Shown: piece after piece, positions 43,200-58,712 of the stretch
Numbering within the stretch: the stretch's first letter is position 1
Layout of the letters: every line of letters starts with the position of its first letter
NCBI GenBank assembly: GCA_913043205.1
Contig: CAJWLF010000001.1
Location: 128,032 to 192,031 of the forward strand
DNA: 64,000 bases
Direction of reading: 5' to 3'
From: an uncultured Chloroflexota bacterium
GTDB taxonomy: Bacteria > Chloroflexota > UBA11872 > VXNJ01
The notes under the pieces: generated by a model
The model's database searches: none
What the model was told of the DNA's origin: nothing
The model's input: only the letters and a program-made list of their open reading frames with translations
Translations under genes and position numbers: made by a program

Positions 43200-44430
43200 C
43201 TGGATGCTGCTAGGGTTAAGATCTCTTAGTTGGTTACTTGCAGCATCGTTATTATGTGTTGGGTTATGGTCCTGTAAAATTGGGCTTGATGGATATTTTC
43301 ATATTGAACCTCTCCAGCCTGATCGAAATGCGGTAACTTTTGCACTGGTCGCCAGAGATTTTGACCAACCTGTATTTATCACCAGTTCCCCTGAGGGATC
43401 CGCTGATTTGTTTGTAGCGGAACGAGGTGGTCGCATTTATCGTTTCGATTCTGACAGTGGGATTCGGAGCATTTTTCTCGATTTGTCAGATATTGTTTCG
43501 ACATCGGGTCTTGAACAAGGACTGCTAGGAATGGCATTTCACCCAAACTATCCTGAAGATGAACGCCTGTTTGTGAATTTTGTTGATTCTGATTGGGATA
43601 CTACCGTTGCATCAATCCGTGCAACGAGTAATGGTACGAACAGTATTCGCCGTGATTTTATGACGGTCATTCTGTCTATCCCACAGCCATTTAACAACCA
43701 TAATGGGGGTATGGTGACTTTTGGCCCTGATGGCCATCTGTACATAGGCACCGGAGATGGAGGCAGTCGAAATGACCCGTATGGCCATGGACAAGACCTT
43801 AATAGTCTGCTGGGCAAAATACTGCGGGTTGATGTGGATGAGTCTGGGGCCCAACCATATGCTATTCCCGATACGAACCCTTTTGTCGGCAGCGAGAATA
43901 AGCGCCCTGAAATTTTTAGTTACGGACTCCGCAATCCGTGGAGATTTTCCTTCGATGTGCAAACTGGCGATTTATGGATCGGAGATGTGGGGCAGAACCG
44001 ATATGAGGAGATTAATTATATAGCCGGAAATTCTCATGGCGGTCACAACTTTGGATGGAGTGATACAGAGGGTCCTGAATGTTTTAACAACCCTGGATGC
44101 CAGCCTGAGGTATACACTCTTCCAATAAGTCATTACGACACAAAAGATGGTTGTGCCATTACCGGGGGGTACGTTTACAGAGGCGATTCGAATCCTTCTC
44201 TTTACGGCACTTATGTTTTTGCTGACTATTGCAACGGCAAATTGTTCGGTGTTTCAAAGGCCAATGGGCGATGGGTAAAAGAATTGTTGATTGACAGTGA
44301 CTTGCACATCAGCTCATTAGGGCAAGACGCCAACAAAGAGCTGTATGTTGCTGATTTCAAATCCGGCAGTATATACCAACTTATGGAAGTTGAATCTCAA
44401 CATGGCTCAAGTTCTGGCGTTGGAATGTGA
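43186..44430 (+). CDS. PQQ-dependent sugar dehydrogenase (GSDH/YliI family), exported
   Basis: N-terminal hydrophobic segment, EQGLLGMAFHP, NHNGG, GDGG, GKILR, GLRNPWR, DVGQN..EE. Confidence 0.9.
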   Translation: MLSVNWMLLGLRSLSWLLAASLLCVGLWSCKIGLDGYFHIEPLQPDRNAVTFALVARDFDQPVFITSSPEGSADLFVAERGGRIYRFDSDSGIRSIFLDLSDIVSTSGLEQGLLGMAFHPNYPEDERLFVNFVDSDWDTTVASIRATSNGTNSIRRDFMTVILSIPQPFNNHNGGMVTFGPDGHLYIGTGDGGSRNDPYGHGQDLNSLLGKILRVDVDESGAQPYAIPDTNPFVGSENKRPEIFSYGLRNPWRFSFDVQTGDLWIGDVGQNRYEEINYIAGNSHGGHNFGWSDTEGPECFNNPGCQPEVYTLPISHYDTKDGCAITGGYVYRGDSNPSLYGTYVFADYCNGKLFGVSKANGRWVKELLIDSDLHISSLGQDANKELYVADFKSGSIYQLMEVESQHGSSSGVGM

Positions 44431-44450
44431 AAATCTATACTAGGATCGTG

Positions 44451-45062
44451 TTATACGGCAGCAGAATGTCGGTCGTTTATCATTTTTGCTACTGCTTCTT
44501 TTGCTTTTCCAATCAGAGGTGGTCCATGACCTGGCAAAAGGTTGTCAAAATCTATTTCCAACAACTTGGACAGGCTTTTCCAAGGTCGAGGATGTCCAAC
44601 AGGGTGCCCGCCAACAAGAAGTCCGCCCTTGACCCATTTGTCACTTGTTCCTAACGAGTCACCCACCACAAGAGTACCGTTGTGAACAGGGGAAAAAAGT
44701 GCGTATTCGTCGCTGGAGGCGGTGGCAATTCTTATCGCAGTGAAGTCCCCTGGCAATAGGTCTCCATCAGAGAATTCGATGTAATCACTGATGGTTTCGA
44801 GTTTCTTCGAATGATTGTTTGGCACATATATGTTTGTGCCGGTTCTCTTGGCGAACAGATGCGCTTGCCGTTCATGGCTGCTGTTGGTAAGTATTATCCC
44901 TGACACCTTACCTGATTCTTCTATCTCGTCGATTCCACTATATTCCAGCGGGTCAACGAGCACGCCCTCATCCGTAGTAGTTTTGATCCAATAGGATTCT
45001 AACCTGAAATAGCCAGGCCAATTCACCGTCCAGTGTTTGATGCCAGGAAGTATTTCTCTCAT
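44451..45062 (-). CDS. Metallo-beta-lactamase fold protein (atypical metal motif)
   Basis: VLVDP, LTNSSHER in place of HxHxDH, VGD, LPGHG. Confidence 0.7.
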   Translation of the reverse strand: MREILPGIKHWTVNWPGYFRLESYWIKTTTDEGVLVDPLEYSGIDEIEESGKVSGIILTNSSHERQAHLFAKRTGTNIYVPNNHSKKLETISDYIEFSDGDLLPGDFTAIRIATASSDEYALFSPVHNGTLVVGDSLGTSDKWVKGGLLVGGHPVGHPRPWKSLSKLLEIDFDNLLPGHGPPLIGKAKEAVAKMINDRHSAAV

Positions 45063-45080
45063 GTGATATGCATGTATTTT

Positions 45081-47378
45081 CTACTCGGACGCTCGAGATT
45101 GTCGGATAACGTTAATTGCTGAGCCAGCCCAGAACCATTCAATCTGATCTTTGTTTAGCGTATGGGACAAAGATATTAAATCAGTTGAGCCATTTGAGTG
45201 CCTGATTGAGGCTTGGAGTGATGTGTTTGGATTTATCTTACCTATGTCGCATATGGTTATGCGGTCATCTTTTCGTATCAAATTATAGTCATCGGAACTA
45301 TCAAAGGTGAGAGGCAAGATGCCCTGTTTTTTAAGATTTGATTCGGCAATCCTCGCAAAACTTCGAGCTATTATGGCGGCCGCTCCCAATAGCCTTGGCG
45401 ACATAGCGGCATGTTCCCTGCTGCTACCTTCACCATAGTTGTCATCACCTATTGCTACCCAGCTGCGAGACTTGTTTTTCCATGAACGTGCAATCTTAGG
45501 AATTGATATATCTTCTTCTCCAGTAATGGAGTTGAACCCATGTCCTGGAGAGGTTGCAAAACAATTATTCGCCCCAAGAAACATGTTGTCACTGATGTTG
45601 TTTAGATGCCCTCGGTATCGAAGCCACGGCCCGGCTGCTGATATGTGGTCTGTGGTACAAGGCCCGTCCGCTTTTAGGAGTACTGGCATATTCAGGTATT
45701 CATCTGGATGACGCTCTTCAAACGGTTTAAGACGTTCAAGCCTTTTGCTGTGGCTAGCGATTTTGACCATAACTTTTTCATCTGAATTCGGTGAAATATG
45801 ACCGTGGCCCCTACCAATATAGCCATTTTCTGGGATATCTTTGGCTTGGGATGGTGGCTTTAAGGTGAATGGTCCATTCGTTCCTTCTAACGCGTCTATG
45901 ACAGGATTGAAAGACAATTTGCCGCCTAGCGCAAACGCCACAGCTATCTCAGGGCTTACAATAAAAGCTAGGGTGTCAGGATTACCATCGTTTCTACGTG
46001 GGAAATTGCGATTGTAAGACGTGACGATTGAGTTTTGTGCGCCAGTTCTACTATCCGGTTGGTTGCTGGGTGCGAAGTCGTCTCTTTGCCACTGTCCGAT
46101 ACAGGGTCCACATGCATTTGCCAGCACCGTCCCCCCCACTTTCTCCAGGGTGCCCAATTGTCCATCTCTTTCGATAGTTGCACGAATCATTTCCGATCCT
46201 GGGGTAACTAAAAATGGGACACGACTGGTGGTTTCATTGCTGATAGCCTGCTCGGCTACAGCCGCGGCACGGGTAATGTCCTGATAGCTGGAATTTGTGC
46301 AGCTGCCTATTAGGCTAGCCGACAATTGATCCGGGTAACCGTGTTCAACAACGTCTTTTTGGAATTCGGACAATGGCCTGGCTAAATCTGGCCTATGAGG
46401 CCCTACCACATGCGGTTCTAGAGATGACAAGTCGATTTCGACAATTTGATCAAAAAATTCTTCAGGACTGTCGAGAACTTCTTGGTCGGCGGTCAATAAA
46501 TCGAGAGATGAGTCAGCTAGGTTTGCAATATCGGATCGATTTGTTGACCTAAGGTATCGGCCCATAGCTTTGTCGTAAGGGAATATGGATGTGGTGGCAC
46601 CAAGTTCCGCCCCCATGTTCGTTATCGTCCCTTTGCCAGTGGCAGCAATCGAAGTTGTCCCTGGTCCAAAATATTCGACTATGTGGTTTGTTCCTCCTTT
46701 GGCTGACAGTATCCCGGCTACCTTTAGAATTACGTCTTTTGGTGACGCCCACCCATCTAGATTACCAGTTAAACGAATGCCGATTAGTTTTGGTGCTAAT
46801 ACTTCCCACGGAAATCCCACCATCACGTCGGCAGCGTCTGCACCACCAACTCCTATAGCAAGCATGCCTAATCCACCAGCGTTTGGAGTATGGCTGTCGG
46901 TTCCTATAAGAAGCCCTCCTGGAAAGGCATAGTTTTCAAACAGCACCTGATGGATAATTCCAGATCCAGGTGACCAAAACCCCATACCATAACGCTGCGA
47001 AACCGATCTTAAAAACTTGTATACCTCGTCATTCTCTTGCTTGGCAGCCTTTAGATCACTGTCTGCTCCAATATGTGCACGAATTAAATGGTCACAATGA
47101 ATGGTTGTTGGAACCGATACCTCGTCCTTATCAGCCAGCATGAATTGCAGAGCTGCCATTTGTGCTGTGGCATCTTGCATAGCCACCCGGTCTGGTGTTA
47201 GTTGTAGATAGCTAACTCCCGGCACTAAGTCTTGTTTGGTATCGACAAGATGGCCGTACAAAAGTTTTTCTGACAGTGTTAAAGGCCGAGATACAGTGCT
47301 TCGCATCCCATCTAACCTCGACCGCATATTGGCGTAAACTTGTGCCACAAAATCCCTTGTCGAATCGATGCTGCTCAT
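45081..47378 (-). CDS. acn: Aconitate hydratase (mitochondrial-like type)
   Basis: DRVAMQDATAQMA, HCDH, DSHT, GSCTNSS, ACGPCIG, YNRNF, TTDHIS, GEGSSRE. Confidence 0.96.
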   Translation of the reverse strand: MSSIDSTRDFVAQVYANMRSRLDGMRSTVSRPLTLSEKLLYGHLVDTKQDLVPGVSYLQLTPDRVAMQDATAQMAALQFMLADKDEVSVPTTIHCDHLIRAHIGADSDLKAAKQENDEVYKFLRSVSQRYGMGFWSPGSGIIHQVLFENYAFPGGLLIGTDSHTPNAGGLGMLAIGVGGADAADVMVGFPWEVLAPKLIGIRLTGNLDGWASPKDVILKVAGILSAKGGTNHIVEYFGPGTTSIAATGKGTITNMGAELGATTSIFPYDKAMGRYLRSTNRSDIANLADSSLDLLTADQEVLDSPEEFFDQIVEIDLSSLEPHVVGPHRPDLARPLSEFQKDVVEHGYPDQLSASLIGSCTNSSYQDITRAAAVAEQAISNETTSRVPFLVTPGSEMIRATIERDGQLGTLEKVGGTVLANACGPCIGQWQRDDFAPSNQPDSRTGAQNSIVTSYNRNFPRRNDGNPDTLAFIVSPEIAVAFALGGKLSFNPVIDALEGTNGPFTLKPPSQAKDIPENGYIGRGHGHISPNSDEKVMVKIASHSKRLERLKPFEERHPDEYLNMPVLLKADGPCTTDHISAAGPWLRYRGHLNNISDNMFLGANNCFATSPGHGFNSITGEEDISIPKIARSWKNKSRSWVAIGDDNYGEGSSREHAAMSPRLLGAAAIIARSFARIAESNLKKQGILPLTFDSSDDYNLIRKDDRITICDIGKINPNTSLQASIRHSNGSTDLISLSHTLNKDQIEWFWAGSAINVIRQSRASE

Positions 47379-47572
47379 AACGTTGTCTCATTTGATGGTT
47401 TCATATTTGTCAATTTGTTGAGTTGAAATTAAAGTTCCTCAGGAGCCCCTGTTGTATATGTTACCTGTAATGGATTTGCTGTGCGAGAGGGCAGCGGGCG
47501 CACCTTAATTGTGGCAGCCCGATTTTTCTGTGGCGTCTTCACGATAACCACGATAAGGACGGAGGCTAGATA

Positions 47573-48703
47573 TTGAAACTTCATGAGCATCAAGCTCGCA
47601 AGCTGTTGTCTGAATTCTCCATACCGGTGCCTCGTGGGATAGTGGCTTCCTCAGTAGATGAGGCGATTTCGGCTTTTCACGAACTAGGAGGCCCGGTAGT
47701 GGTGAAGGCACAAGTCTTGTCTGGTGGGAGGGGAAAGGCTGGAGGGGTGGTATTAGCCAATAACGAGGCTGCCGTAGAATCCGCTGCAAAAAACATACTG
47801 CGTCTTGAGATAGGTGGATATTCTGTGAAGCGTCTTTTAATCACTGATGCTTGCGAAATTTCAAAGGAAATATATTTATCCGCTTTGATCGACAGAAACG
47901 CAGGGGCGATTGCTGTGATGGCTAGCTCCAAAGGCGGTATGGATATTGAAGAAGTGGCTCTGCAGTCGCCCGAATTGATAATGCGTAGACATGTTGATTA
48001 TGCCACGGGTCTCCCTCAATTTATGGCTCGAGAGTTGGGCTTTGAACTCGGTTTGGATTGGGATCAAGTGAAAGAGTTTCAGAGCATAGCGTCTAACCTA
48101 GTAGAGCTGCTGAAACAAGTCGATGCTTCACTTGTTGAGATTAACCCTTTGATTGTAGATGGTGAGGGCCATTGTCGGGCGATAGATGCAAAGATTGATT
48201 TAGATGACAATGCCATGGGCCGTCATCCTGAGCTGGAAAATCTTCGTAACCCGGAGGAGTATACCCGCGAGGAGATTGAGGCGCGAAACGCCGGCATTAG
48301 CTATATAAAATTGGATGGGAACATAGGGTGTATGGTCAATGGAGCAGGTTTGGCTATGGCTCTTCTTGATGTAATCAAAGGTGAGGGCGGAGAGCCAGCC
48401 AATTTTCTCGATGTCGGGGGTGGTGCTGATTCTGTACAGGTCCGAACAGCCATGAACATAATCCTGTCTGATCCAACTGTACGGGTTATCTTGATCAATA
48501 TTTTTGGAGGTATCACTAGATGTGACGAGGTTGCGAACGGTGTAATTGAAGCACTTGGGTCGATTTCCAAAGATGTTGATCTCGTAGTTCGCTTGGTTGG
48601 TACTAATGAGGATGAAGGGTTGTCGCTTTTGAAAACCGCTGGCATTTCAGCTCATTCGTCCATGGTTGAGGCGGTCAAACAGGCTGTTGAGCTGGCGTCA
48701 TGA
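47573..48703 (+). CDS. sucC: Succinyl-CoA synthetase beta subunit
   Basis: LHEHQA, KAQVLSGGRGKAGG, EINP, NGAGLAM, PANFLDVGGG, NIFGGITRCD. Confidence 0.97.
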   Translation: MKLHEHQARKLLSEFSIPVPRGIVASSVDEAISAFHELGGPVVVKAQVLSGGRGKAGGVVLANNEAAVESAAKNILRLEIGGYSVKRLLITDACEISKEIYLSALIDRNAGAIAVMASSKGGMDIEEVALQSPELIMRRHVDYATGLPQFMARELGFELGLDWDQVKEFQSIASNLVELLKQVDASLVEINPLIVDGEGHCRAIDAKIDLDDNAMGRHPELENLRNPEEYTREEIEARNAGISYIKLDGNIGCMVNGAGLAMALLDVIKGEGGEPANFLDVGGGADSVQVRTAMNIILSDPTVRVILINIFGGITRCDEVANGVIEALGSISKDVDLVVRLVGTNEDEGLSLLKTAGISAHSSMVEAVKQAVELAS

Positions 48704-49566
48704 GCATTCTGATCAATGAAAACACTAAAGTTATGGTTCAGGGAATTACCGGTAATCAAGGTTCATTTCACACCAACCTAATGCAGCAATATGGCACGAA
48801 CGTCATCAGTGGTGTCGTGCCCGGGAAAGGTGGCGAATCAGTCTTCGGCGTACCAGTTTTTGACACCGTCATTCAGGCTGTTGAGTTCGATAGACCAGAT
48901 TGTGCAGTGGTATTTGTTCCGGCCGCTGTTGCGGCTGATGCAATACTTGAGGAGGTGGCTTGCGGCATTCCATTAATTATTTGCATTACTGAGGGTATTC
49001 CGGTGCTTGATGTAACAAGAGTTATGCAGGCAGTAAATGCTTCCGGTGTCCGGCTGATTGGACCCAATTGCCCCGGTCTTATAAGCCCTGGTCGAAGCAA
49101 GGTTGGGATTATGCCGAGTCATATTCATATGCCGGGACCTGTAGGCGTCGTCAGCCGTAGTGGAACTCTCACTTATGAAGTCGTACAGGCTTTAACTGAT
49201 GCCGGCATCGGTCAAACTACATGTGTTGGGATTGGTGGGGACCCCATAATTGGCACATCTTTTGTTGAGGCCGTAAAAATGTTTCAAGAAGACGATGAAA
49301 CACGAGGTATTGTGGTCATAGGGGAGATTGGAGGGGAGGGTGAAGAACAATGTGCAGAGTATATAGGCAAATACGTAGACAAGCCGGTCGTAGGATTCAT
49401 TTCCGGTAGGTCAGCGCCCGCTGAAAAACGTATGGGGCACGCCGGTGCGATTGTCTCAGGTAGTACAGGGTCAGCTGATGCAAAAATTTCGGCCTTCGAA
49501 GAAGTCGGTGTTTCAGTCGCAAGGATTCCAACTGACATTGCCGCGTTAATTTCTGATTTATTGTGA
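48700..49566 (+). CDS. sucD: Succinyl-CoA synthetase alpha subunit
   Basis: QGITG, GPNCPG, SRSGTLTYE, GIGGD, GEIGG, MGHAGA. Confidence 0.97.
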   Translation: MSILINENTKVMVQGITGNQGSFHTNLMQQYGTNVISGVVPGKGGESVFGVPVFDTVIQAVEFDRPDCAVVFVPAAVAADAILEEVACGIPLIICITEGIPVLDVTRVMQAVNASGVRLIGPNCPGLISPGRSKVGIMPSHIHMPGPVGVVSRSGTLTYEVVQALTDAGIGQTTCVGIGGDPIIGTSFVEAVKMFQEDDETRGIVVIGEIGGEGEEQCAEYIGKYVDKPVVGFISGRSAPAEKRMGHAGAIVSGSTGSADAKISAFEEVGVSVARIPTDIAALISDLL

Positions 49567-49689
49567 TGTTTTGTTATGCATGATCGTGTGCGCAGACGGA
49601 TAACTGTGTAGGATATACGTTCAGGTGTTAATTAGAGTTATTACTTTGACGGGTTGTACAAGCAATCTGGGAAAGGCAAAAGCATAACT

Positions 49690-51333
49690 GTGATCCAGCA
49701 CGATGTAATCGTGGTTGGTGGTGGTGTTGCAGGCCTTAGTGCGGCTATAGCTGCAGCTGACAGAGGGTCTGTGGCTCTTATTTCAAAGAGCCACCCGCTG
49801 CGCTCAATGTCGGCAAGTATTCGTGAAGGTATTAATTGTTGTGATGATGATTTGTTCCCTTCATTGGTGGCGGATACGATCCACGCCGGCGAATATCTTA
49901 ATGATGTTAATGCTACAGAGGCATTGATCAAAAATTCCTCACAAATGGTCTCAAAGTTGGAGGAGTATGGGGTTGCCTTTACCCGAGATTCTGCAGGGTT
50001 GGCTGCAACGGCTAAATTACAAGGGGCTTCTCGTTCATATACTCGGTACTGTTCCGACCATACAGGAAGGGCGGTAGTTAATGCTTTGTGGAGCCAAGTG
50101 GTTAAGGCTGGCGTATCTGTATACGACGAATGGATGGCTACTAAATTACTTGTAGACGAGTCGACAGTGTGCGGTGTTGTTGCACTGGATATACGGTCTG
50201 GTCGTGTACATTCTTTTTCTGGTCGCTCTGTAGTCATTTGCTCGGGGGGGTATGGGGGTATATTTGCTGATAGTGCTGCGGGGTCCTATGTTTGCGGTGA
50301 TGGATTGGCGATGGCCTATCGAATTGGCGCCACCCTTAAGAATATGGAATTTGTGGATTTTCACCCTGCTGGACTTAGAACGGTTGATGGGATGCCATCA
50401 GATGGGGCAGCTATCGGTGATATGGCCATAGCCCTAGGGGCGCGATTCGTGAATTCTGATGGAGATGAGATAGACGTTGGGTTGAATAATGGGGTGCTTC
50501 CACCGGACCACATAATGTCAAACGCTCTCAGTAATGTGGCTGGTGATGTGGCATTAGATTTCACCACAATCGATAATGAGTTGATGGCTGAGATTATTCC
50601 TTCTTGTTTACCTCTTTTGCGTTCTATCACCACTACTTCATCTGATGGTATTAGAGTTTCAGTTAAGCCGGTTGTTAGGCGGGTAATCGGCGGTATAAAC
50701 ATAAATAGTGTCGGTGCGACTAATGTGTCAGGGCTATACGCTGCTGGTGAGGCTGCCTGCTCAGGGGTTCATGGAGCGGGGTTGCTAGCAGGGAATTCAA
50801 TGCTCGATGATTTTGTATCCGGATGGAATGCTGGCGTGGAAGGCAGTCGGGTTGAAGGTGGCTTTAGGACCATCAATGAAGGTGACGCGCATGATGAGCA
50901 GAATCGAATAGAGAGCATATTACGTAGAGATGAGGGGAACTCGGCGGCGGCAATTTCAAGTTCTCTAAGGCGCGCTATGTCCGATGGTTTTGGAGTCCTT
51001 AGATCACCGGATGGTATGGAAATTGCTTCTCAAGTGCTATTTGATTGTCGCGAATCCCTCAATGGTGTCGCCATTTACGATGGGCGAAGCCGCTATAATC
51101 AAGAATTAGTTAAAGTGCTTGAATTGCAGAATATGATAGAGGTTGCAGGTGCGCTGGTTACGTCTGCAATGGCACGAAAGGAATCACGGGGTAGTCATAA
51201 ACGTACTGATTTTATTGAGGTTGATGACGAGAGATATCAAAAACATTCTGAAATCACATTTCACCCCAATGGTTCTGAAGTATCTTTTGTGTCTTTTCCG
51301 GCAATTCGCTCCTCCCGACAGGAGGCTCAGTGA
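49690..51333 (+). CDS. SdhA/FrdA-like flavoprotein with a degenerate active site
   Basis: Collinear with SdhA ([36 protein letters not shown]) but most catalytic residues are substituted. GTG 49690 aligns with the FrdA start. Confidence 0.88.
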   Translation: MIQHDVIVVGGGVAGLSAAIAAADRGSVALISKSHPLRSMSASIREGINCCDDDLFPSLVADTIHAGEYLNDVNATEALIKNSSQMVSKLEEYGVAFTRDSAGLAATAKLQGASRSYTRYCSDHTGRAVVNALWSQVVKAGVSVYDEWMATKLLVDESTVCGVVALDIRSGRVHSFSGRSVVICSGGYGGIFADSAAGSYVCGDGLAMAYRIGATLKNMEFVDFHPAGLRTVDGMPSDGAAIGDMAIALGARFVNSDGDEIDVGLNNGVLPPDHIMSNALSNVAGDVALDFTTIDNELMAEIIPSCLPLLRSITTTSSDGIRVSVKPVVRRVIGGININSVGATNVSGLYAAGEAACSGVHGAGLLAGNSMLDDFVSGWNAGVEGSRVEGGFRTINEGDAHDEQNRIESILRRDEGNSAAAISSSLRRAMSDGFGVLRSPDGMEIASQVLFDCRESLNGVAIYDGRSRYNQELVKVLELQNMIEVAGALVTSAMARKESRGSHKRTDFIEVDDERYQKHSEITFHPNGSEVSFVSFPAIRSSRQEAQ

Positions 51334-52043
51334 TGGATAATGTTGAATTAGTTGTAACTAGATACGATCCAGAAATAGACGATTTTCATCGAAGTCAAAC
51401 ATTCTCTGTTAGGGCGGTGCCAGGCATGACTGTTCTTGATGCACTAGTTCAGGTCCGTGACGAACAGGATGGATCACTTCGTTTCAGAGAGTCGGAACCT
51501 GGTGGTTGGAGCGGTTCATGCGCGGTCACGGTTAATGACGTGCCGTGTCTGGCTTCCCGGACGCTTCTGGCTAGAGTTATATTAAATAATTCAGCTGTGA
51601 TAGGTCCTTTGAAGAATTTTCCGGTAATATGTGATCTGGTTGTTGACAACCCCATATATCTGGCAAAAATTGAAGCTTTGGAGCCTTGGGTAGATAACGC
51701 AAAAGAGCAACCTGCATCAATGACCCGTGAAGAGTATTTTAGATTGCGACGAACTGATGGGTGTGCCCTTTGTGGTATTTGTGATGCTAATTCGGATGAG
51801 TACCTGACTGATCCAATGTTTATTGGAGCAGCGTCATTACTGTGGACCTATCGTTTGACATCCGATTCGCGTGACTCGTTTGACCGAGAGCGCATGGAGG
51901 CTGTGCTTGGTAGCGGAGGGTTATGGGCCTTTTCTGGTGATACTTCCAGTGAGGATTTATGTCCTTATGCTATCGACCCAGTAAATCAAATTATGAGATT
52001 ACGAAATGCAGCCTCACAGAATGGATATGTTCCTACTGAATAG
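51330..52043 (+). CDS. SdhB/FrdB-like Fe-S protein missing most cluster cysteines
   Basis: RYDP, TVLDAL, DGSL.FR, PLKNFPVICDLVVD, CALCGIC, FIGAA, DSRD, LCP; translationally coupled to the upstream gene. Confidence 0.88.
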   Translation: MMDNVELVVTRYDPEIDDFHRSQTFSVRAVPGMTVLDALVQVRDEQDGSLRFRESEPGGWSGSCAVTVNDVPCLASRTLLARVILNNSAVIGPLKNFPVICDLVVDNPIYLAKIEALEPWVDNAKEQPASMTREEYFRLRRTDGCALCGICDANSDEYLTDPMFIGAASLLWTYRLTSDSRDSFDRERMEAVLGSGGLWAFSGDTSSEDLCPYAIDPVNQIMRLRNAASQNGYVPTE

Positions 52044-52091
52044 AGATGGTTTGGTGATAATGGGTCACCATTCATAAGGAGGTTTTGAATA

Positions 52092-53018
52092 ATGCGGCCT
52101 AAAGTGACTGTTGTCGGAGCTGGTGCGACAGGCGGATCTACCGCGAGAAGGGTAGCCGCTCGCGGATATGCTGACGTGGTGCTACTGGACATAATGGCAG
52201 ACTTTGCTGCCGGCAAAGCCCTGGATTTAAATCAGGCAGGCTCTTTGGTCGGGTATCCGCCGAATATAGTTGGAACCGGGTCTTATGAAGATACTCGCGG
52301 ATCTTCTGTTTGCGTAATAACCTCTGGGTTTCCTCGGAAGCCTGGAATGTCTCGAGATGATCTATTGCTTGGCAACAAGGAAATTATTGAAATCGTTGTC
52401 GAAAAGCTTTTAGACGAGTCTCCTGACACCATTTTGGTAATCCTAACGAATCCTATGGACGCGATGGCTCAATTAGCTCTCCACGTGTCTGGATTACCAC
52501 GCCAAAAAGTTATAGGACAAGGTGGGATACTTGATACTGCTAGATATCGGACATTCATTGCATGGGAGCTCGGTGTAGCGGCTGATGATGTATCTGGTTT
52601 CGTTCTTGGTGGTCATGGAGATACGATGGTACCAGTACCCAGTTATACATCGGTAGCAGGCATTCCTGTAACGGAACTTATTGATGCTGATCGATTGGAA
52701 GAAATTGTTCAGCGTGCACGTGATGGTGGGGCCGAAGTTGGAGGTCTGATGAAAGTCGCTAGTGCATTTGAGGCGCCTGGAGAGGCCTGTGCAATGATGG
52801 TTGATTCCATAATGCTTGATCAGAAACGAATATTTCCCTGCGCTGTACAGCTGGAAGGTGAGTTTGATATTGATGGGACCTTCGTCGGTGTTCCAGTTAA
52901 GTTGGGTAGCGGTGGAGTGGAACAGATAATGCCGCTGAAATTGTCGTCTACTGAAATATCAGATCTAAAAAAGTCAGCTGATGCAGTAGTTGAACTGGTT
53001 AAAATTATGGGTATCTAG
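52092..53018 (+). CDS. mdh: Malate dehydrogenase (LDH-like)
   Basis: GAGATG, GKALD, PRKPGMSRDDL, NPMD, LDTAR, LGGHGD; AAGGAGG SD. Confidence 0.96.
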   Translation: MRPKVTVVGAGATGGSTARRVAARGYADVVLLDIMADFAAGKALDLNQAGSLVGYPPNIVGTGSYEDTRGSSVCVITSGFPRKPGMSRDDLLLGNKEIIEIVVEKLLDESPDTILVILTNPMDAMAQLALHVSGLPRQKVIGQGGILDTARYRTFIAWELGVAADDVSGFVLGGHGDTMVPVPSYTSVAGIPVTELIDADRLEEIVQRARDGGAEVGGLMKVASAFEAPGEACAMMVDSIMLDQKRIFPCAVQLEGEFDIDGTFVGVPVKLGSGGVEQIMPLKLSSTEISDLKKSADAVVELVKIMGI

Positions 53019-53100
53019 GCATACGAATACATCGGACTTGTAATTGTCCTATTGAGTCGTCGCATCTGTCTGCGAGGTGTGGCTGCCGATGATGAGTGTT

Positions 53101-53457
53101 TTAGAGCCCTGCAAGTAATAATGCAGCTAGCCCGGAAGCCCCAAGGGCGCTTAGATAACATAGTGTTGCCGCTATTGGATCTGGTATTGGAATACGAGTG
53201 TCATGTATCGTATGGCGTATCCGATGAGCGGCGTGCATTAACGATGCTCCTATAACGGCTAATACGACGATGCGTACGATCCAGTTGCTAAGCAGTGAGT
53301 ATATTCGATCATACGAAAAGGCCACTTGGGCCTCTTCTATTCCAAATCCACCTAAAATAGTAGATGCAATTAATGAAGGTATTAGCATTGCTGACACGAC
53401 TCCACCACCACTAAATATTAGCCAGAACAATGCTTCGTTCGATCCACGAGGCTTCAT
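53101..53457 (-). CDS. frdD: Fumarate reductase subunit D (membrane anchor)
   Basis: SNEALFWLIFSGGG and HAAHRIRHTIHD match enterobacterial-type FrdD; start trimmed to ATG 53457. Confidence 0.9.
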   Translation of the reverse strand: MKPRGSNEALFWLIFSGGGVVSAMLIPSLIASTILGGFGIEEAQVAFSYDRIYSLLSNWIVRIVVLAVIGASLMHAAHRIRHTIHDTRIPIPDPIAATLCYLSALGASGLAALLLAGL

Positions 53458-53915
53458 GAAAATATCATCCATAGAACAATAGAGCTTACTCCCAACCACA
53501 CTATGTAAAGGGGAGTGATTAAAAATAGTGGCGATATCGGAGATTCTCCTTTAAGTATCCGTACCGCTTTCGGCGTCAGATTAAACCAAGTTACCGTATG
53601 AAATAACGCAAAGAGCAAGGTAAATACTTGAATTACCGTTAATGGTGGCGACCATAGCAACTCCATATAGTCGTTGTATGCTTCTGCTCCGATATACAAA
53701 GCCGCTATCAACCCTATAAACAGTATGAGGTATAAAGCGATAAAGACTGAGGTTAGCTCTCTAATAAATACGAAGAAATAAGACGATCCCCGTAGCCACC
53801 ACGTTGCCCCTAAATCTGGACGTGGGCGAGTATCACGCTGTCTGTATCTCGTGTGATTAAGCCACCAATTTGAGTGCAAGTTATGGGAAGGACGGCGTTT
53901 TTCGGGGTCAGTCAT
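53454..53915 (-). CDS. frdC: Fumarate reductase subunit C (membrane anchor)
   Basis: TWWL...Y..FIRELTS and HTVTWFNLTPKA; start trimmed to ATG 53915. Confidence 0.9.
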   Translation of the reverse strand: MTDPEKRRPSHNLHSNWWLNHTRYRQRDTRPRPDLGATWWLRGSSYFFVFIRELTSVFIALYLILFIGLIAALYIGAEAYNDYMELLWSPPLTVIQVFTLLFALFHTVTWFNLTPKAVRILKGESPISPLFLITPLYIVWLGVSSIVLWMIFS

Positions 53916-54661
53916 TTGTTCCCTTTTGGCATAATCAATGATTTGGCATAGGCCAGGGCACTTTCGAGCTTGGCTTGTTGTATCGCGGCTGCCGGATCTA
54001 CTCCTTTTGGGCATACATTTGAACACTCTCCCACGAAGGTACAGTCCCAAACACCCTCATTGGCCATAAGAACATCTAGTCTTTGCTCTTTTCCTGAGTC
54101 GCGAGAGTCCAAGTTATATCGCTGGGCTAGCGCTATGGCTGCAGGTCCAACGAATTCAGGTTCGTTGCTGGCCACGGGGCACGCAGAGTAACACAGGGTG
54201 CAGTTAATACACATGCTGTATTGCTTGTATTTTGCCAGTTGAGCAGGTGTTTGTTTGTATTCTCGGTTCGCGGGAGGGACCGAGTCTCCTTCAATTAACC
54301 AGGGCTTCACGGAGTCTAGTTTGTGGATAAAGTCATCCATATCCACTATAAGATCTCGTTCAACTCTGAAATTGGCCAATGGTTCAACAACGATAGGGTC
54401 TGGGTAGTATTCTGAGAGAAACGCGGAACATGTGAGCTTGGGTTTGCCGTTAATCATCATCCCGCAACTGCCGCACACTCCCATTCGGCACGACCATCGA
54501 TAAGCTAGCGATCCGTCAACGTAATCTTTTATGTAATTAAGCGCATCAAGAACAACCCAATCTTCGTTGTACGGAACCATGTATTCATCATAGCCGTCCG
54601 TGGTCTGCCCTTCGGTGTATCTGGATATTTTTAGGGGTATTCTGTCAGTATCCACGGTCAT
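53912..54661 (-). CDS. frdB: Fumarate reductase/succinate dehydrogenase Fe-S subunit
   Basis: All clusters intact: [37 protein letters not shown]. Confidence 0.96.
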
Positions 54662-56418
54662 TTTCCTCCTCCGTATATACGTTTAGCTGGCGGGAGGTTA
54701 GTGATGACAACATCCTTGTGCTCGATTCGCGGTGCGTCATCGGTGTTGTACGCAAGAGAATGTTTTAGGAACTCGTCATCATCTCGCTCTGGGAAATCAG
54801 TTCGCTGGTGAGATCCACGAGATTCTTTTCGGCGGAGCGCAGAGAACGTGACTGTCTCTGCAATATCAAGCATGAAGTCTAGCTCTATTGCAGAAGTTAA
54901 TTCTGTATTGTAGGACAGGCTAGTGTCATCTAGTTTAAGGTTTTTGGATCGTTTGCGTAGCTCTGTGATCGTTGTACAGGCCTTTTGCATTCCTTCCGCA
55001 TTTCGGTATATTCCTGCTCCTTCTTCAAGCGCGGATGTCATTATATTTCTGAGATCCGCTATTTTTTCATCCCCGGCTCGATTTCCGAGCAGCTCCGAAA
55101 TCCTATTAATCTCGTCTTGAGTCTGGGAGAGCAGGTCGTTTTCCCCAGATATGCCGTGCTGTTGGGCGAATATGGCTGCATTTCTGCCGGCTTGCGCCCC
55201 AAAAACTAGCAGTTCAGTTAGCGAATTGGAGCCTAGTCTATTTGCACCATTAATGCTTACGCATGCGCATTCTCCGGCTGCGTATAGTCCCGGTAGGGTA
55301 GTCGCGGCTTCAATATCCGTATCTATGCCGCCCATCATGTAATGCACCACAGGACGCACGGGGATAGGTTCGTGTACAGGGTCTACCCCACCATAGTTGT
55401 TAGACAACTCCCTTACGAAAGGTATCTTTTTCTCAATATATGATTCACCCAAATGTCTTACGTCTAAATGAACGTAAGTACCATGAGGGCCTTCAAAGAC
55501 ATTACCTTTGGTTTGTTCGTGTATGAACGCCTGCGACAAACGATCTCGGGGACCTAGTTCCATTGTTCGGTTTTTCGGATGATCATGATGATCTATAGGG
55601 AGAGGCTTGCCTAGATCATAGTCGCTGAGGTAACGATGTCCTTTGTTATTGACAAGGATCCCTCCCTCTCCTCGGGCTGCTTCGGTAATTAGAATACCGG
55701 TTCCTGGTAGTCCTGTTGGGTGGTATTGAACAAATTCCATGTCTTTCAATGCAACCCCTGCCCTGTAGGCTAGAGCCATTCCATCTCCGGTCTTGATTGC
55801 AGCATTCGTAGTAAATGGGAACACTCTTCCGCCTCCGCCTGTGCACATAATTACTGCCTTCGCAAGTATCGGTACGATCCGTCCTGTGCGCAACTCCATT
55901 GCAGCTACCCCTTGGCACCTACCATCGTGGGTTAACAGCCTAAGCGCCATCCATTCGTCATACCGTTGCAAGCTCCTATATTTGAGAGTTGTTTGGAACA
56001 GTGAGTGAAGTACATGGAACCCAGTTTTGTCCGCTGCAAACCATGTACGTTCAATCTGCATTCCGCCAAATGGGCGAACTGCAACGCTGCCGTCTGATTC
56101 GCGGCTCCAGGGACACCCCCAGTGTTCGAGTTGAATCAACTCCGACGGTGCTGTTCTCACGAAAAATTCAACAGCGTCCTGGTCCGCTAGCCAGTCTGAT
56201 CCGCTCACCGTGTCATAGATGTGATCCTCAAAACTGTCATTGGGCTTGATGACGGCTGCCATGCCACCTTCTGCAGCCACCGTATGGCTGCGCATTGGGT
56301 AGACCTTGGAAACTACAGCCACGTCCAAATCTGGGTTCTCTTGAGACACCGCAATAGCAGCCCTAAGCCCTGCCCCTCCACCTCCAATAATTAGAATGTC
56401 GTGTTTGATAGAGCGCAT
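54658..56418 (-). CDS. frdA: Fumarate reductase/succinate dehydrogenase flavoprotein
   Basis: [43 protein letters not shown] all intact. Confidence 0.97.
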
Positions 56419-56611
56419 AGCCGTTAAGTGTGCGTTAGATTCTTTCTGCCTAATGACTGGAACGCTAGTTTAGTGCCGCGCACGTATACAGGTATCCAAA
56501 CTAGAGCCAACAAAGTATTCATGACTCTGAGTAGTGTACTGTTATTTTCATCAGTAGTGCTAGGCGAATTGAAAAGATTCTCCTATTCATGCAAACGCAG
56601 TAACATAACCT

Positions 56612-57688
56612 ATGGATATAGGACTATTTTTGATGCCCCTGCATCCGCCAGAGAAACCCCCGTCCATGTCGATAGCTGAGGATCTGGAACTGATCGTACA
56701 CGCTGACAAATTGGGTTTCAGTGAGGCTTGGGTTGGGGAGCATATGACTGCTAAGTGGGAAATTATAGGATCACCTGATCTGTTTTTGTCTCATGCCTTT
56801 GCCATGACCAAAGATATTCGACTTGGGACGGGAGTGTATTTATTGGCCGTACATCACCCGTCTGATGTCGCCACTAGAGCAGCTTTGTTGGACCAAATCT
56901 CTAAAGGTCGATTCAATTTTGGTGTCGGGACAGGCAGCGTCCCTAGCGATCGTCCTTTTAAGAACGTTGTGGACGATGCCAAGGTCATGAATGGACGGTT
57001 TACGGAGAGCCTTGAGATTATTTTAGGCATATGGCAGGCAGAGCCACCCTGGAAATATGAGGGTGAATATTGGACGGTGGAATTGACTGATCAATGGGCG
57101 GATCTAGATATGGGTTTCCCACTAAAACCCTTTACCAAACCTCATCCCCCTATCGCGATACCTGGGTTTTCTCGCGATTCTGGGTCAATCTTTGAAGCTG
57201 GGAAGAGGGGTTGGGGGGCTCTGTCAACGAACCTTGCGAGTAATGACATTATTGGAACTCACCAATCACGCTACAAGCAAGGCATGGAATTGGACGGAGG
57301 GGTTTTTCGGCCACAGGGCTGGCGAGTGGCCCGAGAAGTACACGTTGCTGATACTGATCAAGAAGCTATGGAGTATGCGATCAATGGCCCGATGGGCGAG
57401 GCATTTCGCAGGTACATGCTGCCTTTGTGTAAGAAGAATATTCCTGACGGGCTTGGTATTTTTAAGGATGATCCCAGCATCCCTGACAGTGATGTGACAG
57501 TGGAGTACCTAGCAGAAAATGTATGGTTGGTCGGTAGTCCGGATACTGTTGCAGATAAAATCAATCAATTTATGGGTAGTTACGGCGAATTTGGGACACT
57601 GCTGGTTGTAGCCCATGATTGGGTTGATGCAGCCCCAGTGCTTCATAGCATGGAATTGTTAGCAGGTGAGGTGCGGCCTGCAATTTAA
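56612..57688 (+). CDS. Luciferase-like (LLM class) flavin-dependent oxidoreductase
   Basis: GLFLMPLHP, LGFSEAWVGEH, IRLGTGV, LDQISKGRFNFGVG, PHPPI, VGSPDTV. Confidence 0.92.
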   Translation: MDIGLFLMPLHPPEKPPSMSIAEDLELIVHADKLGFSEAWVGEHMTAKWEIIGSPDLFLSHAFAMTKDIRLGTGVYLLAVHHPSDVATRAALLDQISKGRFNFGVGTGSVPSDRPFKNVVDDAKVMNGRFTESLEIILGIWQAEPPWKYEGEYWTVELTDQWADLDMGFPLKPFTKPHPPIAIPGFSRDSGSIFEAGKRGWGALSTNLASNDIIGTHQSRYKQGMELDGGVFRPQGWRVAREVHVADTDQEAMEYAINGPMGEAFRRYMLPLCKKNIPDGLGIFKDDPSIPDSDVTVEYLAENVWLVGSPDTVADKINQFMGSYGEFGTLLVVAHDWVDAAPVLHSMELLAGEVRPAI

Positions 57689-57716
57689 CCTGGTTAGTGG
57701 ATTCTTATGGATTGGT

Positions 57717-58712
57717 TTAAGGGTTTAAGTTCCTAGCGATGTGGAGGAGCCAACACACTCGTTCTAGAGTTGTGTCCAGAGTCACATGGATCGGCTGATC
57801 CTCAATTTTCGATATGGTTGGTCTCCTGAGCCAAACGCCGTCAGGTGTTTGGGTATCGATGAGCATAGTGGCCACCTGCTCGGCAGCTACCTTGAAGTTC
57901 AGTTGCTGGGTTGCCAGAAACAATTCAGAGCAACCCCAGCCAACCTTTGCTGCTGTTAGATCATTGAAGGCTCCGGGAGCACATTTGTTAGCCCAGTCGA
58001 ATAATATGTCGCATGTAGTTAAAAACGACGAGTCTTGAGTTGTTTGGAATAGTCTCGCCAATGCTGCCATACATATGCCAAGAGGCCAATAAATCTGGTG
58101 TGCAGCGCCTAAGTCTAGTTTGTATCTGGATTTGTCAGATTTGGCATAGGTATCTATCCAATTCCCATCCCATGATTGGCGAAATAATACGTACTCAGTA
58201 GGATCTGGTTGCGTCGCAATCATTCTCTGTACTAGATGTTCTCCGGCCAAAATGGCTTGATTTGTCATGCCAAGTTCAAGCATTCCTAGGAGGGTAGCAG
58301 AGGTTGTCGCAAGGTCGATCTCACGCTTTTCGTTTGCAATTGGTTTCCGTGCTAATACCCCCCCGGTTTCAGGATTTTGCATCGAGTTTAGATGTGCAGC
58401 TAACGAAGGTCGCAAGTTGTCGTTGTCGTCTGGCGTAGTTCCCACAGATAACATTGCATTTCGAAAAGTAGCAACGTTAGATCCAGTATCGTTGGTCCCT
58501 TTATTAATGTCGCCATCTCTCACCATAGTCCGCTTTACATAACTCAACGCCGCTTCTGCTAAGTCAGGAAAGCCTGACATCCTAAATGCGAGTGGTGCTA
58601 AGTAATACGCTCCCACCTCATGACTTGCATCGCGGAAGGATCCGTCGCCCTTGAGTAACGATCTTGCCCATGTCATGGCTGATTGGGCTGAATCTTGGTA
58701 AACACTGATCAT
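57717..58712 (-). CDS. Hypothetical protein, probable alpha/alpha barrel
   Basis: 331 aa helical ORF with QNPETGG and QTPDGVW motifs resembling QW repeats. Confidence 0.65.
   Translation of the reverse strand: MISVYQDSAQSAMTWARSLLKGDGSFRDASHEVGAYYLAPLAFRMSGFPDLAEAALSYVKRTMVRDGDINKGTNDTGSNVATFRNAMLSVGTTPDDNDNLRPSLAAHLNSMQNPETGGVLARKPIANEKREIDLATTSATLLGMLELGMTNQAILAGEHLVQRMIATQPDPTEYVLFRQSWDGNWIDTYAKSDKSRYKLDLGAAHQIYWPLGICMAALARLFQTTQDSSFLTTCDILFDWANKCAPGAFNDLTAAKVGWGCSELFLATQQLNFKVAAEQVATMLIDTQTPDGVWLRRPTISKIEDQPIHVTLDTTLERVCWLLHIARNLNP

Follow-up and report, generated by a model that had tools for sequence, protein, structure and literature searches.

Why would a protein built like the iron-sulfur subunit of complex II keep the cysteines for the middle one of its three clusters and give up those for the clusters on either side? 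The question is raised by a gene in a 64,000-nucleotide stretch of DNA (the window) from an uncultured Chloroflexota bacterium (GenBank assembly GCA_913043205.1, contig CAJWLF010000001.1, positions 128,032 to 192,031). The gene, here called sdhB' (51330..52043, plus strand), encodes a 237-amino-acid protein of the SdhB/FrdB fold with cysteine at all four ligand positions of the [4Fe-4S] cluster, and it follows sdhA' (49654..51333, plus strand), which encodes an SdhA/FrdA-like flavoprotein. The B subunit of complex II is usually treated as an indivisible three-cluster module, the textbook electron wire. SdhB' appears to belong to a natural series in which that wire has been dismantled under selection: all 11 cysteines in the canonical protein, the [2Fe-2S] and [4Fe-4S] sets in two related genera, and the [4Fe-4S] set alone in the window's own genus and one other.

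The ligand positions were read from alignments of SdhB' to the canonical FrdB encoded elsewhere in the window, to Escherichia coli FrdB (1kf6_B) and in multiple alignments. At window-FrdB columns 58, 63, 66 and 78, the [2Fe-2S] set, SdhB' has E, S, C and S, and the claim of the original prediction, made from the DNA letters alone, that three of these four cysteines had been lost is borne out. At columns 151, 154, 157 and 161 the residues are C, C, C and S, and at columns 207, 213 and 217 they are F, S and C. In Wolinella succinogenes FrdB, the [4Fe-4S] cluster is held by Cys151, 154, 157 and 218, the [3Fe-4S] cluster by Cys161, 208 and 214, and the [2Fe-2S] cluster by Cys57, 62, 65 and 77, according to the section of the structural account that lists the ligands (PMC10739449); this agrees with the assignment on which the prediction relied. 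The tally for SdhB' is four of four [4Fe-4S] cysteines, none of three for [3Fe-4S] and one of four for [2Fe-2S], and the alignments likewise confirm that every [4Fe-4S] ligand survives and every [3Fe-4S] ligand is gone. The sequence strings that had been quoted match three short stretches of the protein. The former [2Fe-2S] loop (residues 55-76, SEPGGWSGSC..LAS; 51492..51557, plus strand) has E56, S61, C64 and S76 at the ligand positions. Motif 2 (residues 145-155, CALCGICDANS; 51762..51794, plus strand) keeps C145, C148 and C151, with S155 in place of the [3Fe-4S] cysteine. Motif 3 (residues 201-212, FSGDTSSEDLCP; 51930..51965, plus strand) has F201 and S207 at the two remaining [3Fe-4S] positions and keeps C211-P212, the fourth [4Fe-4S] ligand. 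An SdhB/FrdB has four cysteines for [2Fe-2S] (or three and an aspartate) and three for [3Fe-4S] (or a fourth cysteine that makes a second [4Fe-4S]); neither set is present in SdhB', and the four [4Fe-4S] cysteines are, as C145, C148, C151 and C211. (The protein has seven cysteines in total; the two extra ones are C73, in VPCLAS, three residues ahead of the lost fourth [2Fe-2S] ligand, and C101.) Had five of the 11 ligand cysteines been kept at random, the chance that they would include all four [4Fe-4S] ligands is 7/462, or 0.015, and the chance of keeping exactly those four, the state found in one related genus, is 1/330.

Is this still an SdhB protein as a whole? The AlphaFold2 model is confident (pLDDT 92, pTM 0.87, from a 72-row alignment), and its top Foldseek matches are the E. 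coli FrdB structures 6awf and 1kf6, with a TM-score of 0.90 and a root-mean-square deviation of 1.9-2.0 Å over 235 columns at 30% sequence identity. From the model and its superposition, SdhB' is therefore predicted to have the complete two-domain fold, with a plant-ferredoxin-like N-terminal domain and a helical dicluster C-terminal domain. Profile searches recognize less of it. Fer2_3 (PF13085, 70.4 bits) at the N-terminus is the sole Pfam match, and no Fer4 or 4Fe-4S dicluster model in Pfam matches SdhB'; the window's canonical FrdB, 28% identical and used as an internal control, matches PF13085 and 12 more models (11 of Fer4 type and Fer2). Among the NCBIfam models, SdhB' passes only the broad subfamily TIGR00384 (148.6 bits against a cut-off of 88) and falls far under every equivalog cut-off, including that of the TfrB model NF004898 (99.9 bits against 385). 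A search of the ESM Atlas returned canonical SdhB clusters only, small families being unable to appear there. The gene itself looks sound. Its open reading frame has 237 codons, and ATG 51333 is a likelier start than GTG 51330: it is the start in an identical database entry (P0001), and an AGGAGG at 51319-51324 lies 8 nt ahead of it. The overlap with the stop codon of sdhA' is 4 nt when counted from GTG 51330 and 1 nt from ATG 51333.

When did the clusters go, and in what order? Fourteen orthologues of SdhB' come from four genera of one Chloroflexota family: the window and a congener (contig L044, protein P0002) from g1, the window's own genus, six from g4, five from g2 and one from g3, with identities to the window protein from 83% down to 38%. 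The four [4Fe-4S] cysteines are present in 14 of 14, as is the Cys-Pro at the last of these ligands. At [3Fe-4S] columns 161 and 213 none of the 14 has a cysteine, and at column 207 only the five g2 sequences and one g4 sequence do. The [2Fe-2S] columns divide the genera: all four are cysteine in g2 and g3 (6/6 sequences), none in the six g4 sequences and one of four in the two g1 sequences. In the last two genera the former [2Fe-2S] loop shares the motif RE[SA]E[PA]GG[FW]SG (with A for P in one g4 locus, L039), in which the position of W60 is Trp in g1 and Phe in all six g4 proteins. The 10-row family alignment has 61 invariant columns out of 237, and these include all four [4Fe-4S] cysteines and none of the other seven cysteine positions; the same four remain invariant in the 72-sequence alignment with canonical SdhBs. 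Because two genera retain the full set of [2Fe-2S] cysteines and the other two have lost it, the loss was stepwise and cluster by cluster, the [3Fe-4S] site in the common ancestor and then the [2Fe-2S] site in the g1/g4 branch, with the [4Fe-4S] site never lost. On this comparison the lone-[4Fe-4S] state of g1 and g4 is the end of the series. The alignment at the 11 cysteine positions that had been proposed as a check thus gives cluster-wise, non-random losses. The accompanying image of an electron wire cut at both ends fits g1 and g4 and fails for g2 and g3, where the [2Fe-2S] ligands are still there.

How unusual is this end state? Cysteines were tabulated in 219 SdhB homologues, one of the 220 fetched having been left out. 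(The omitted match, P0101, of 3006 aa, which phmmer had brought in at E 7e-26 over 16 stretches, is a HYR_4C/cadherin/Big_9 repeat protein with a type IX secretion signal, a cysteine-rich false positive.) All 11 cysteines are present in 182 of the 219, and all four [4Fe-4S] columns are cysteine in 213. Only nine proteins, all of the g1/g4 branch, have lost both outer sites and kept the four [4Fe-4S] cysteines. Nine further SdhB-like proteins, from other lineages (P0161, P0098, P0094, P0137, P0145, P0219, P0174, P0159 and P0111; six of them aligned further), have lost at least two [3Fe-4S] ligands and kept the [2Fe-2S] and [4Fe-4S] sets; P0161 represents a cluster that contains a protein of Syntrophobacter fumaroxidans. 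Since these outsiders show the same loss, disappearance of the anchor-proximal [3Fe-4S] cluster first is a recurrent route. The state with the middle cluster alone left is unique to this Chloroflexota family within the homologue sample. Two other proteins, P0138 and P0141, show the opposite pattern: most of their [2Fe-2S] cysteines are replaced by Asp, Ser or Thr, all seven cysteines of the other two clusters are kept, and Fer4 Pfam models still match.

A word-indexed search of 5.8 billion proteins gave 10 clusters that match PF13085 only, then a gap, then ordinary SdhBs, and an exhaustive HMMER scan of 1.84 billion representatives gave only three representatives of the family (E 4e-132, 7e-56 and 4e-44), followed by a drop to E 3e-32, where canonical proteins start. 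By genome, the paralogue is found in 14 of 14 genomes of g1 to g4 (one a partial match at a contig end), in none of five genomes, 77-96% complete, of g5, a fifth genus of the same family, and in none of 22 sister-family genomes, each of which has one canonical match or none. The sequencing runs in which the window's DNA occurs are marine metagenomes, a habitat assignment that leaves aside the DNA runs with a small share of it (X5-X17).

If the wire has been dismantled, has its flavoprotein partner been left as it was? The longest reading frame of sdhA' opens at TTG 49654, and translation probably begins at GTG 49690, the start of database entry P0221 (547 aa). SdhA' is 31% identical to the window's canonical FrdA and matches the FAD (flavin adenine dinucleotide)-binding domain models PF00890 (182 bits) and PF02910 (92.8 bits), and it lies below all NCBIfam cut-offs (TIGR01812, 359 bits against 567.3). 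The FAD-binding core that defines an SdhA/FrdA is there, its glycines and the AAGE motif being found in all eight g1 and g4 proteins, and because of it the pair is probably still a flavoprotein. The histidine that binds FAD covalently and the dicarboxylate catalytic set are not there in the window protein. It has Met at the covalent-FAD position and keeps H232, and the equivalents of T244, E245, R248, R287, H355 and R390 (in E. coli FrdA numbering) are G, D, I, D, R and L. The g2 and g3 proteins keep T244, E245, R248, R287 and H355 and have lost the covalent-FAD histidine (to G or A), H232 (to N) and R390 (to P or S); nearly all catalytic residues are lost in g4 and g1. The same gradient is seen more widely: 45 canonical SdhAs have 176 columns conserved to at least 90%, of which 107 are common to all ten g2/g3-type proteins and only 56 to all eight g1 and g4 proteins. 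These 56 take in the glycines of the dinucleotide-binding motif GxGxxG and the motif GxxAAGE, as well as a C-terminal RxESRG. Other positions have been replaced in an equally invariant way in g1 and g4, such as Leu at R390, Tyr in place of a canonically invariant Arg and [IVL]-R-[ED]-G following the former histidine site. A quick maximum likelihood tree, from which neither a donor nor a root is drawn, has g1 and g4 SdhA' together to one side of a branch with an SH-aLRT of 97, on stems of 1.74 and 3.94 changes per site, respectively, which carry long-branch warnings, and in an 18-row set it joins them with the g2/g3 type (support 95). Because SdhA' too has lost its succinate/fumarate residues, the whole pair, and not the wire alone, has left succinate:quinone chemistry.

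Nor does the operon supply a membrane anchor. Within a five-gene block on the plus strand, sdhB' is fourth, after sucC (47573-48703), sucD (48700-49566) and sdhA', and 48 nt upstream of mdh, which encodes a malate dehydrogenase of lactate dehydrogenase type (52092..53018, plus strand); the aconitase gene (acn) lies upstream of sucC and is divergent. This order holds in 13 of 13 loci examined and in L044, a metagenome contig that is collinear with the window over 11 genes, and no anchor gene is found in the operon in any of the 13. The window does have FrdC and FrdD genes, but as part of the canonical frdABCD-type complex II next door (53101..56418, minus strand), which served as context and internal control. 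It consists of frdA (54658-56418), with every catalytic residue present, frdB (53912-54661), with all 11 cysteines, and frdC and frdD (53101-54050), whose products have the FrdC and FrdD Pfam domains, all on the minus strand; it is the enzyme that works as succinate dehydrogenase/fumarate reductase in this genome. It is also the regular enzyme of the lineage, since it is present in g5 and is the single complex II of the sister family (67-71% identical to the window FrdA), and sdhA'B' is an extra pair peculiar to four genera. In the g5 block, sucC-sucD-mdh-frdABCD, no gene separates sucD from mdh. Without an anchor, a quinone-proximal cluster, a covalent flavin or a dicarboxylate site and, in g1 and g4, also without a flavin-proximal cluster, SdhA'B' is unable to act as a succinate:quinone oxidoreductase. 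As two of the three cluster sites, the anchor and the catalytic residues of the partner are all wanting, the pair is not classed as a succinate dehydrogenase or a fumarate reductase.

Both genes are nevertheless clearly under purifying selection, at the level of their housekeeping neighbors. Within g4, the ratio of nonsynonymous to synonymous substitution rates (dN/dS) is 0.09-0.13 for sdhB' and 0.14-0.20 for sdhA' (six pairs, dS 0.36-1.13), next to 0.08-0.11 for the canonical sdhB, 0.06-0.10 for mdh, 0.10-0.13 for sucD and 0.15-0.27 for sucC. Between the window and L044 it is 0.058 for sdhB' (dS 1.57) and 0.138 for sdhA', next to 0.046 for mdh, 0.043 for sucD, 0.115 for sucC and 0.064 for acn, a comparison that covers seven of the 11 genes and gives no value for frdC, frdB, frdA and llm. 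(Several dS values exceed 1, near saturation, and the ratios are approximate.) Neither sdhA' nor sdhB' has a broken reading frame in any of the 13 complete loci or in L044. Such selection on both genes excludes random decay, and together the cysteine pattern and the dN/dS of sdhB' (0.06-0.13) support the earlier view that selection and not decay lies behind the pattern.

Do the two proteins still belong together? Co-folding of SdhA' with SdhB' gave an ipSAE of 0.94, and the best of three controls scored 0.00. Of 80 solved complexes 58 attain this mark, as do 2 of 110 mismatched pairs. At least 93% of contacts recur between runs, and the partner pLDDT is at least 86. Because SdhA-SdhB complexes have already been solved, this result speaks for likeness to them and not for binding, and the model may simply reproduce them. 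The predicted interface on SdhB' takes in residues 53-63, in the former [2Fe-2S] loop, and residues 143-147 and 212-214, in both [4Fe-4S] ligand loops, and the former [3Fe-4S] positions 155, 201 and 207 lie outside it. In complex II, the [3Fe-4S] ligands sit in the part of FrdB that touches FrdC, in the section of PMC10739449 concerned with that contact.

What, then, is the remaining cluster for? The reading we prefer, and judge to have about an even chance of being right, is that SdhA'B' is a soluble, anchor-less, non-respiratory heterodimer in which the [4Fe-4S] cluster is structural and not an electron relay. Cluster occupancy, the structural role, FAD binding and formation of the heterodimer are all things that we infer. 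The [3Fe-4S] site, which in complex II faces the membrane anchor, would have become dispensable first, once the anchor had been lost or if it had never been present. Loss of the [2Fe-2S] site would have followed, along with that of the succinate/fumarate catalytic residues in SdhA'; the vacated cavity is plausibly occupied by an aromatic side chain, W60 in g1 and F in g4. With no cluster on either side and the flavin too distant, the lone [4Fe-4S] would no longer relay electrons. It would be kept as a structural keystone, both of the C-terminal domain of SdhB' and of the contact with SdhA': the loops C145-x2-C148-x2-C151 and C211-P212 would hold the C-terminal domain in shape and contribute to that contact. 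SdhA'B' would then either have gained an activity that needs no relay or play a non-catalytic part.

Several points weigh against this reading. Four conserved cysteines alone do not prove a bound cluster, and a residual metal site at C64 and C73, in the window and congener proteins, is possible. The gap between flavin and [4Fe-4S], of more than 20 Å against a tunneling limit of about 14 Å, is one that we assume by carrying over distances for E. coli complex II (presumably about 11-12 Å from flavin to [2Fe-2S] and about 9-10 Å on to [4Fe-4S]) and does not come from a model of the pair. The argument from the interface may merely echo the solved structures. The FAD core and the invariant, clade-specific substitutions in SdhA' hint at a remodeled active site, and with such a site the [4Fe-4S] cluster could keep a redox or regulatory job. 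A structural role alone also leaves unexplained why the pair is retained beside a complete frdABCD in a 1.9-Mb genome. Finally, transcription of the pair is a hint only. Two metatranscriptome runs from two studies, found with this same stretch, have short Logan contigs at 92-100% identity to the region; those of run X4 fall in sdhA' (three), sdhB' (51551-51717), the junction of sdhB' and mdh (51886-52127), mdh, acn and frdA, and run X10 has one 225-nt piece in sdhA'. Carry-over of DNA is possible, and the lack of coverage of sucCD and frdBCD in X4 is meaningless. A bolder proposal, which we consider doubtful, is that SdhA'B' is a new soluble protein with a rebuilt flavoprotein site, in which the lone [4Fe-4S] either acts as a switch that responds to redox state, oxygen or iron or is the cofactor for some new reaction, within the operon of the tricarboxylic acid (TCA) cycle, the genera preserving the path from three clusters to two to one.

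Could the lone cluster be a sensor? Oxidation, loss or nitrosylation of the [4Fe-4S] would then alter the stability or conformation of SdhA'B', and hence flux through the TCA cycle or the neighboring enzymes, in response to O2, reactive oxygen species, iron limitation or nitric oxide, by analogy with cluster-based switches such as FNR and aconitase/IRP1. An isolated [4Fe-4S] without relay partners would suit such a role, as would the place of the pair in 13 of 13 loci inside a TCA operon with aconitase, sucCD and mdh, the purifying selection on a pair that has lost catalysis, and a host that is a surface or marine organism, judged by the runs that hold its DNA. However, the locus encodes neither a DNA- or RNA-binding domain nor a partner that resembles a regulator, nothing points to a solvent-exposed or labile cluster, and the literature searched yielded no precedent among complex II proteins; on balance, a sensor seems unlikely.

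Alternatively, the pair might be a redox enzyme with a new function, its [4Fe-4S] still redox-active and exchanging electrons with an external carrier (ferredoxin, for example) docked at the former anchor site, or reaching the flavin through a rearranged geometry or by a hop over W60. The FAD-binding core is kept while the substrate residues have been remodeled with clade-specific invariant replacements, and the g2/g3 relatives, with [2Fe-2S] and [4Fe-4S] ligands and T244, E245, R248, R287 and H355, resemble a working two-cluster soluble enzyme. Anchor-less SdhAB sets with fewer clusters have also been annotated in S. fumaroxidans, in the part of the genome report devoted to them (PMC3570798). 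The g1 and g4 proteins, however, are without [2Fe-2S] ligands, and both their fold and the predicted geometry of the two subunits are canonical; the flavin and the [4Fe-4S] should therefore stay too far apart. Moreover, all six g4 proteins have Phe at the W60 position, a residue unable to serve as a hopping relay. A redox enzyme of this kind is accordingly a distinctly unlikely explanation for the end state of the series.

Or perhaps there is no iron-sulfur cluster at all, the four cysteines binding zinc, forming disulfides or being conserved for some other reason. The failure of the Pfam Fer4 models to recognize the region any longer speaks for this idea. Against it, the fold superposes on FrdB at 1.9 Å with the cysteines precisely in the [4Fe-4S] ligand columns, and the Cys-Pro of the last ligand is retained in 14 of 14 sequences. 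Sulfurs at the spacing of a cubane are too far apart for tetrahedral zinc, and disulfides are unlikely in the cytoplasm. We regard the absence of a cluster as very unlikely. That the genes are decaying duplicates, pseudogenes in the making whose cysteine pattern is an accident of residues not yet mutated, is scarcely credible in spite of the very long SdhA' stems of g1 and g4, the many family-wide conserved residues lost and the sucCD-mdh block of g5 with no pair between, given frames intact in every locus, a dN/dS of 0.06-0.20, four cysteines invariant over four genera, a Shine-Dalgarno sequence, overlapping coupled genes and a GC content like that of the surroundings.

Two other candidates were considered and set aside. 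The place of SdhA'B' between sucCD and mdh, and the use of a [4Fe-4S] cluster by class I fumarases, might suggest a substitute for fumarase; this was rejected because the genome has a class II fumarase domain (FumC C-terminal domain, 69.9 bits, at about 29610-29771 on the minus strand, about 18 kb upstream of the TCA operon) and because ligation by four cysteines is not of the hydratase type. A search for a class I fumarase in this genome (93.6% complete) found none. A horizontal island at sdhA'B' was likewise rejected, the GC content being 0.45-0.49 over 44000-58000, with no step at the pair.

How does the pair compare with systems already described? With canonical SdhB/FrdB (chain B of E. 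coli 1KF6/6AWF; W. succinogenes 2BS2), SdhB' has in common the fold, the position of its gene after an SdhA-like gene and the [4Fe-4S] columns, but it lacks the [3Fe-4S] ligands, has one of four [2Fe-2S] ligands and no anchor in the operon, and is paired with a partner without catalytic residues. The nearest described case is the annotation-level note on S. fumaroxidans, whose genome report lists an anchor-less frdABEF and an sdhAB-1 with fewer cluster motifs (PMC3570798). Like SdhB', these sets have neither a full complement of three clusters nor, in that account, a transmembrane subunit; unlike it, they keep [2Fe-2S], their SdhA is reported with catalytic residues, and none of those described there is [4Fe-4S]-only (PMC3570798). 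The SdhB of sdhAB-1 is said, in the same part of the report, to have no [4Fe-4S] motif (PMC3570798). P0161, from the S. fumaroxidans cluster, which may or may not correspond to the sdhAB-1 locus, has cysteine at all four [4Fe-4S] columns; with its [2Fe-2S] cysteines and no [3Fe-4S] ligands, it is in the state of g2 and g3. In the literature searched, which was covered in part, there is no description of an SdhB reduced to [4Fe-4S] alone.

Other comparisons are more distant. Type E SdhB and the thiol:fumarate reductase subunit TfrB have a second [4Fe-4S] cluster in place of the [3Fe-4S]. They share with SdhB' a non-classical cluster complement and the lack of a classical heme or quinone anchor, but they gain or keep clusters and stay wires, whereas SdhB' loses two of three. 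Lone [4Fe-4S] clusters that are not relays are found in endonuclease III/MutY and in glutamine phosphoribosyl pyrophosphate (PRPP) amidotransferase, where a single four-cysteine cubane without a redox partner holds a loop or reports redox state; the folds and families of these proteins are unrelated to that of SdhB', and the comparison concerns how SdhB' might work, with the cysteine pattern as the only pointer to such a role. A further parallel is Tim18, a paralogue of SDHD in the yeast TIM22 complex, where the SDHC-Tim18 dimer binds no heme, as set out in the pertinent section of PMC10238741. Like SdhA'B', it is a complex II subunit paralogue that has moved to a non-respiratory setting with loss of a cofactor (PMC10238741, same section), but it is a eukaryotic membrane subunit and not an A/B catalytic pair.

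The neighborhood of the pair has features of its own. The frdABCD genes that follow mdh are inverted in the window (53101-56418, minus strand) and lie on the same strand as mdh in g5 (L048:5429-9581); the two arrangements therefore differ by an inversion as well as by the presence of sdhA'B'. In g4 (L014:9727-12516, minus strand, and likewise L013, L015-L017 and L039) there is no complex II of the frdABCD type beside the operon. The complex II of this genus is of another type, only 31-35% identical to the window FrdAB, with an SdhB that passes the NCBIfam equivalog NF009052 (371 bits) and has 13 cysteines, and the regular complex II seems to have been exchanged there. The longest reading frame of the window's frdC (53454-54050, minus strand) overlaps frdB by 139 nt; the corresponding upstream extension in L044 has an in-frame stop, which places the real start of frdC further downstream. 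Directly beside frdA is a gene for a luciferase-like monooxygenase (PF00296, 137 bits; 56612-57688, plus strand), 94% identical in L044 and among the most conserved of the locus. In L015, a contig of a metagenome-assembled genome, the aconitase is split into two overlapping reading frames of 571 and 358 aa (L015:1841-4125, minus strand), probably by a frameshift or an assembly error. A scan of 47300-53200 gave no terminator-like sites (5.1 in shuffled sequence) and five promoter-like sites (9.8 in shuffled sequence), and is uninformative beyond raising no objection to a single transcription unit.

What does the dismantled wire mean for complex II and for the bacteria that carry it? It suggests that the [4Fe-4S] site may be the one cluster site that the SdhB fold cannot structurally do without and that SdhAB-like pairs can adopt non-respiratory roles. 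SdhB' would also serve as a small, tractable protein in which to probe a lone cubane in a former relay protein. Because it passes TIGR00384, annotation pipelines would still name it a succinate dehydrogenase iron-sulfur subunit, and the finding suggests that counts of sdhAB in metagenomes, for example those of marine Chloroflexota, overstate the number of functional succinate dehydrogenases.

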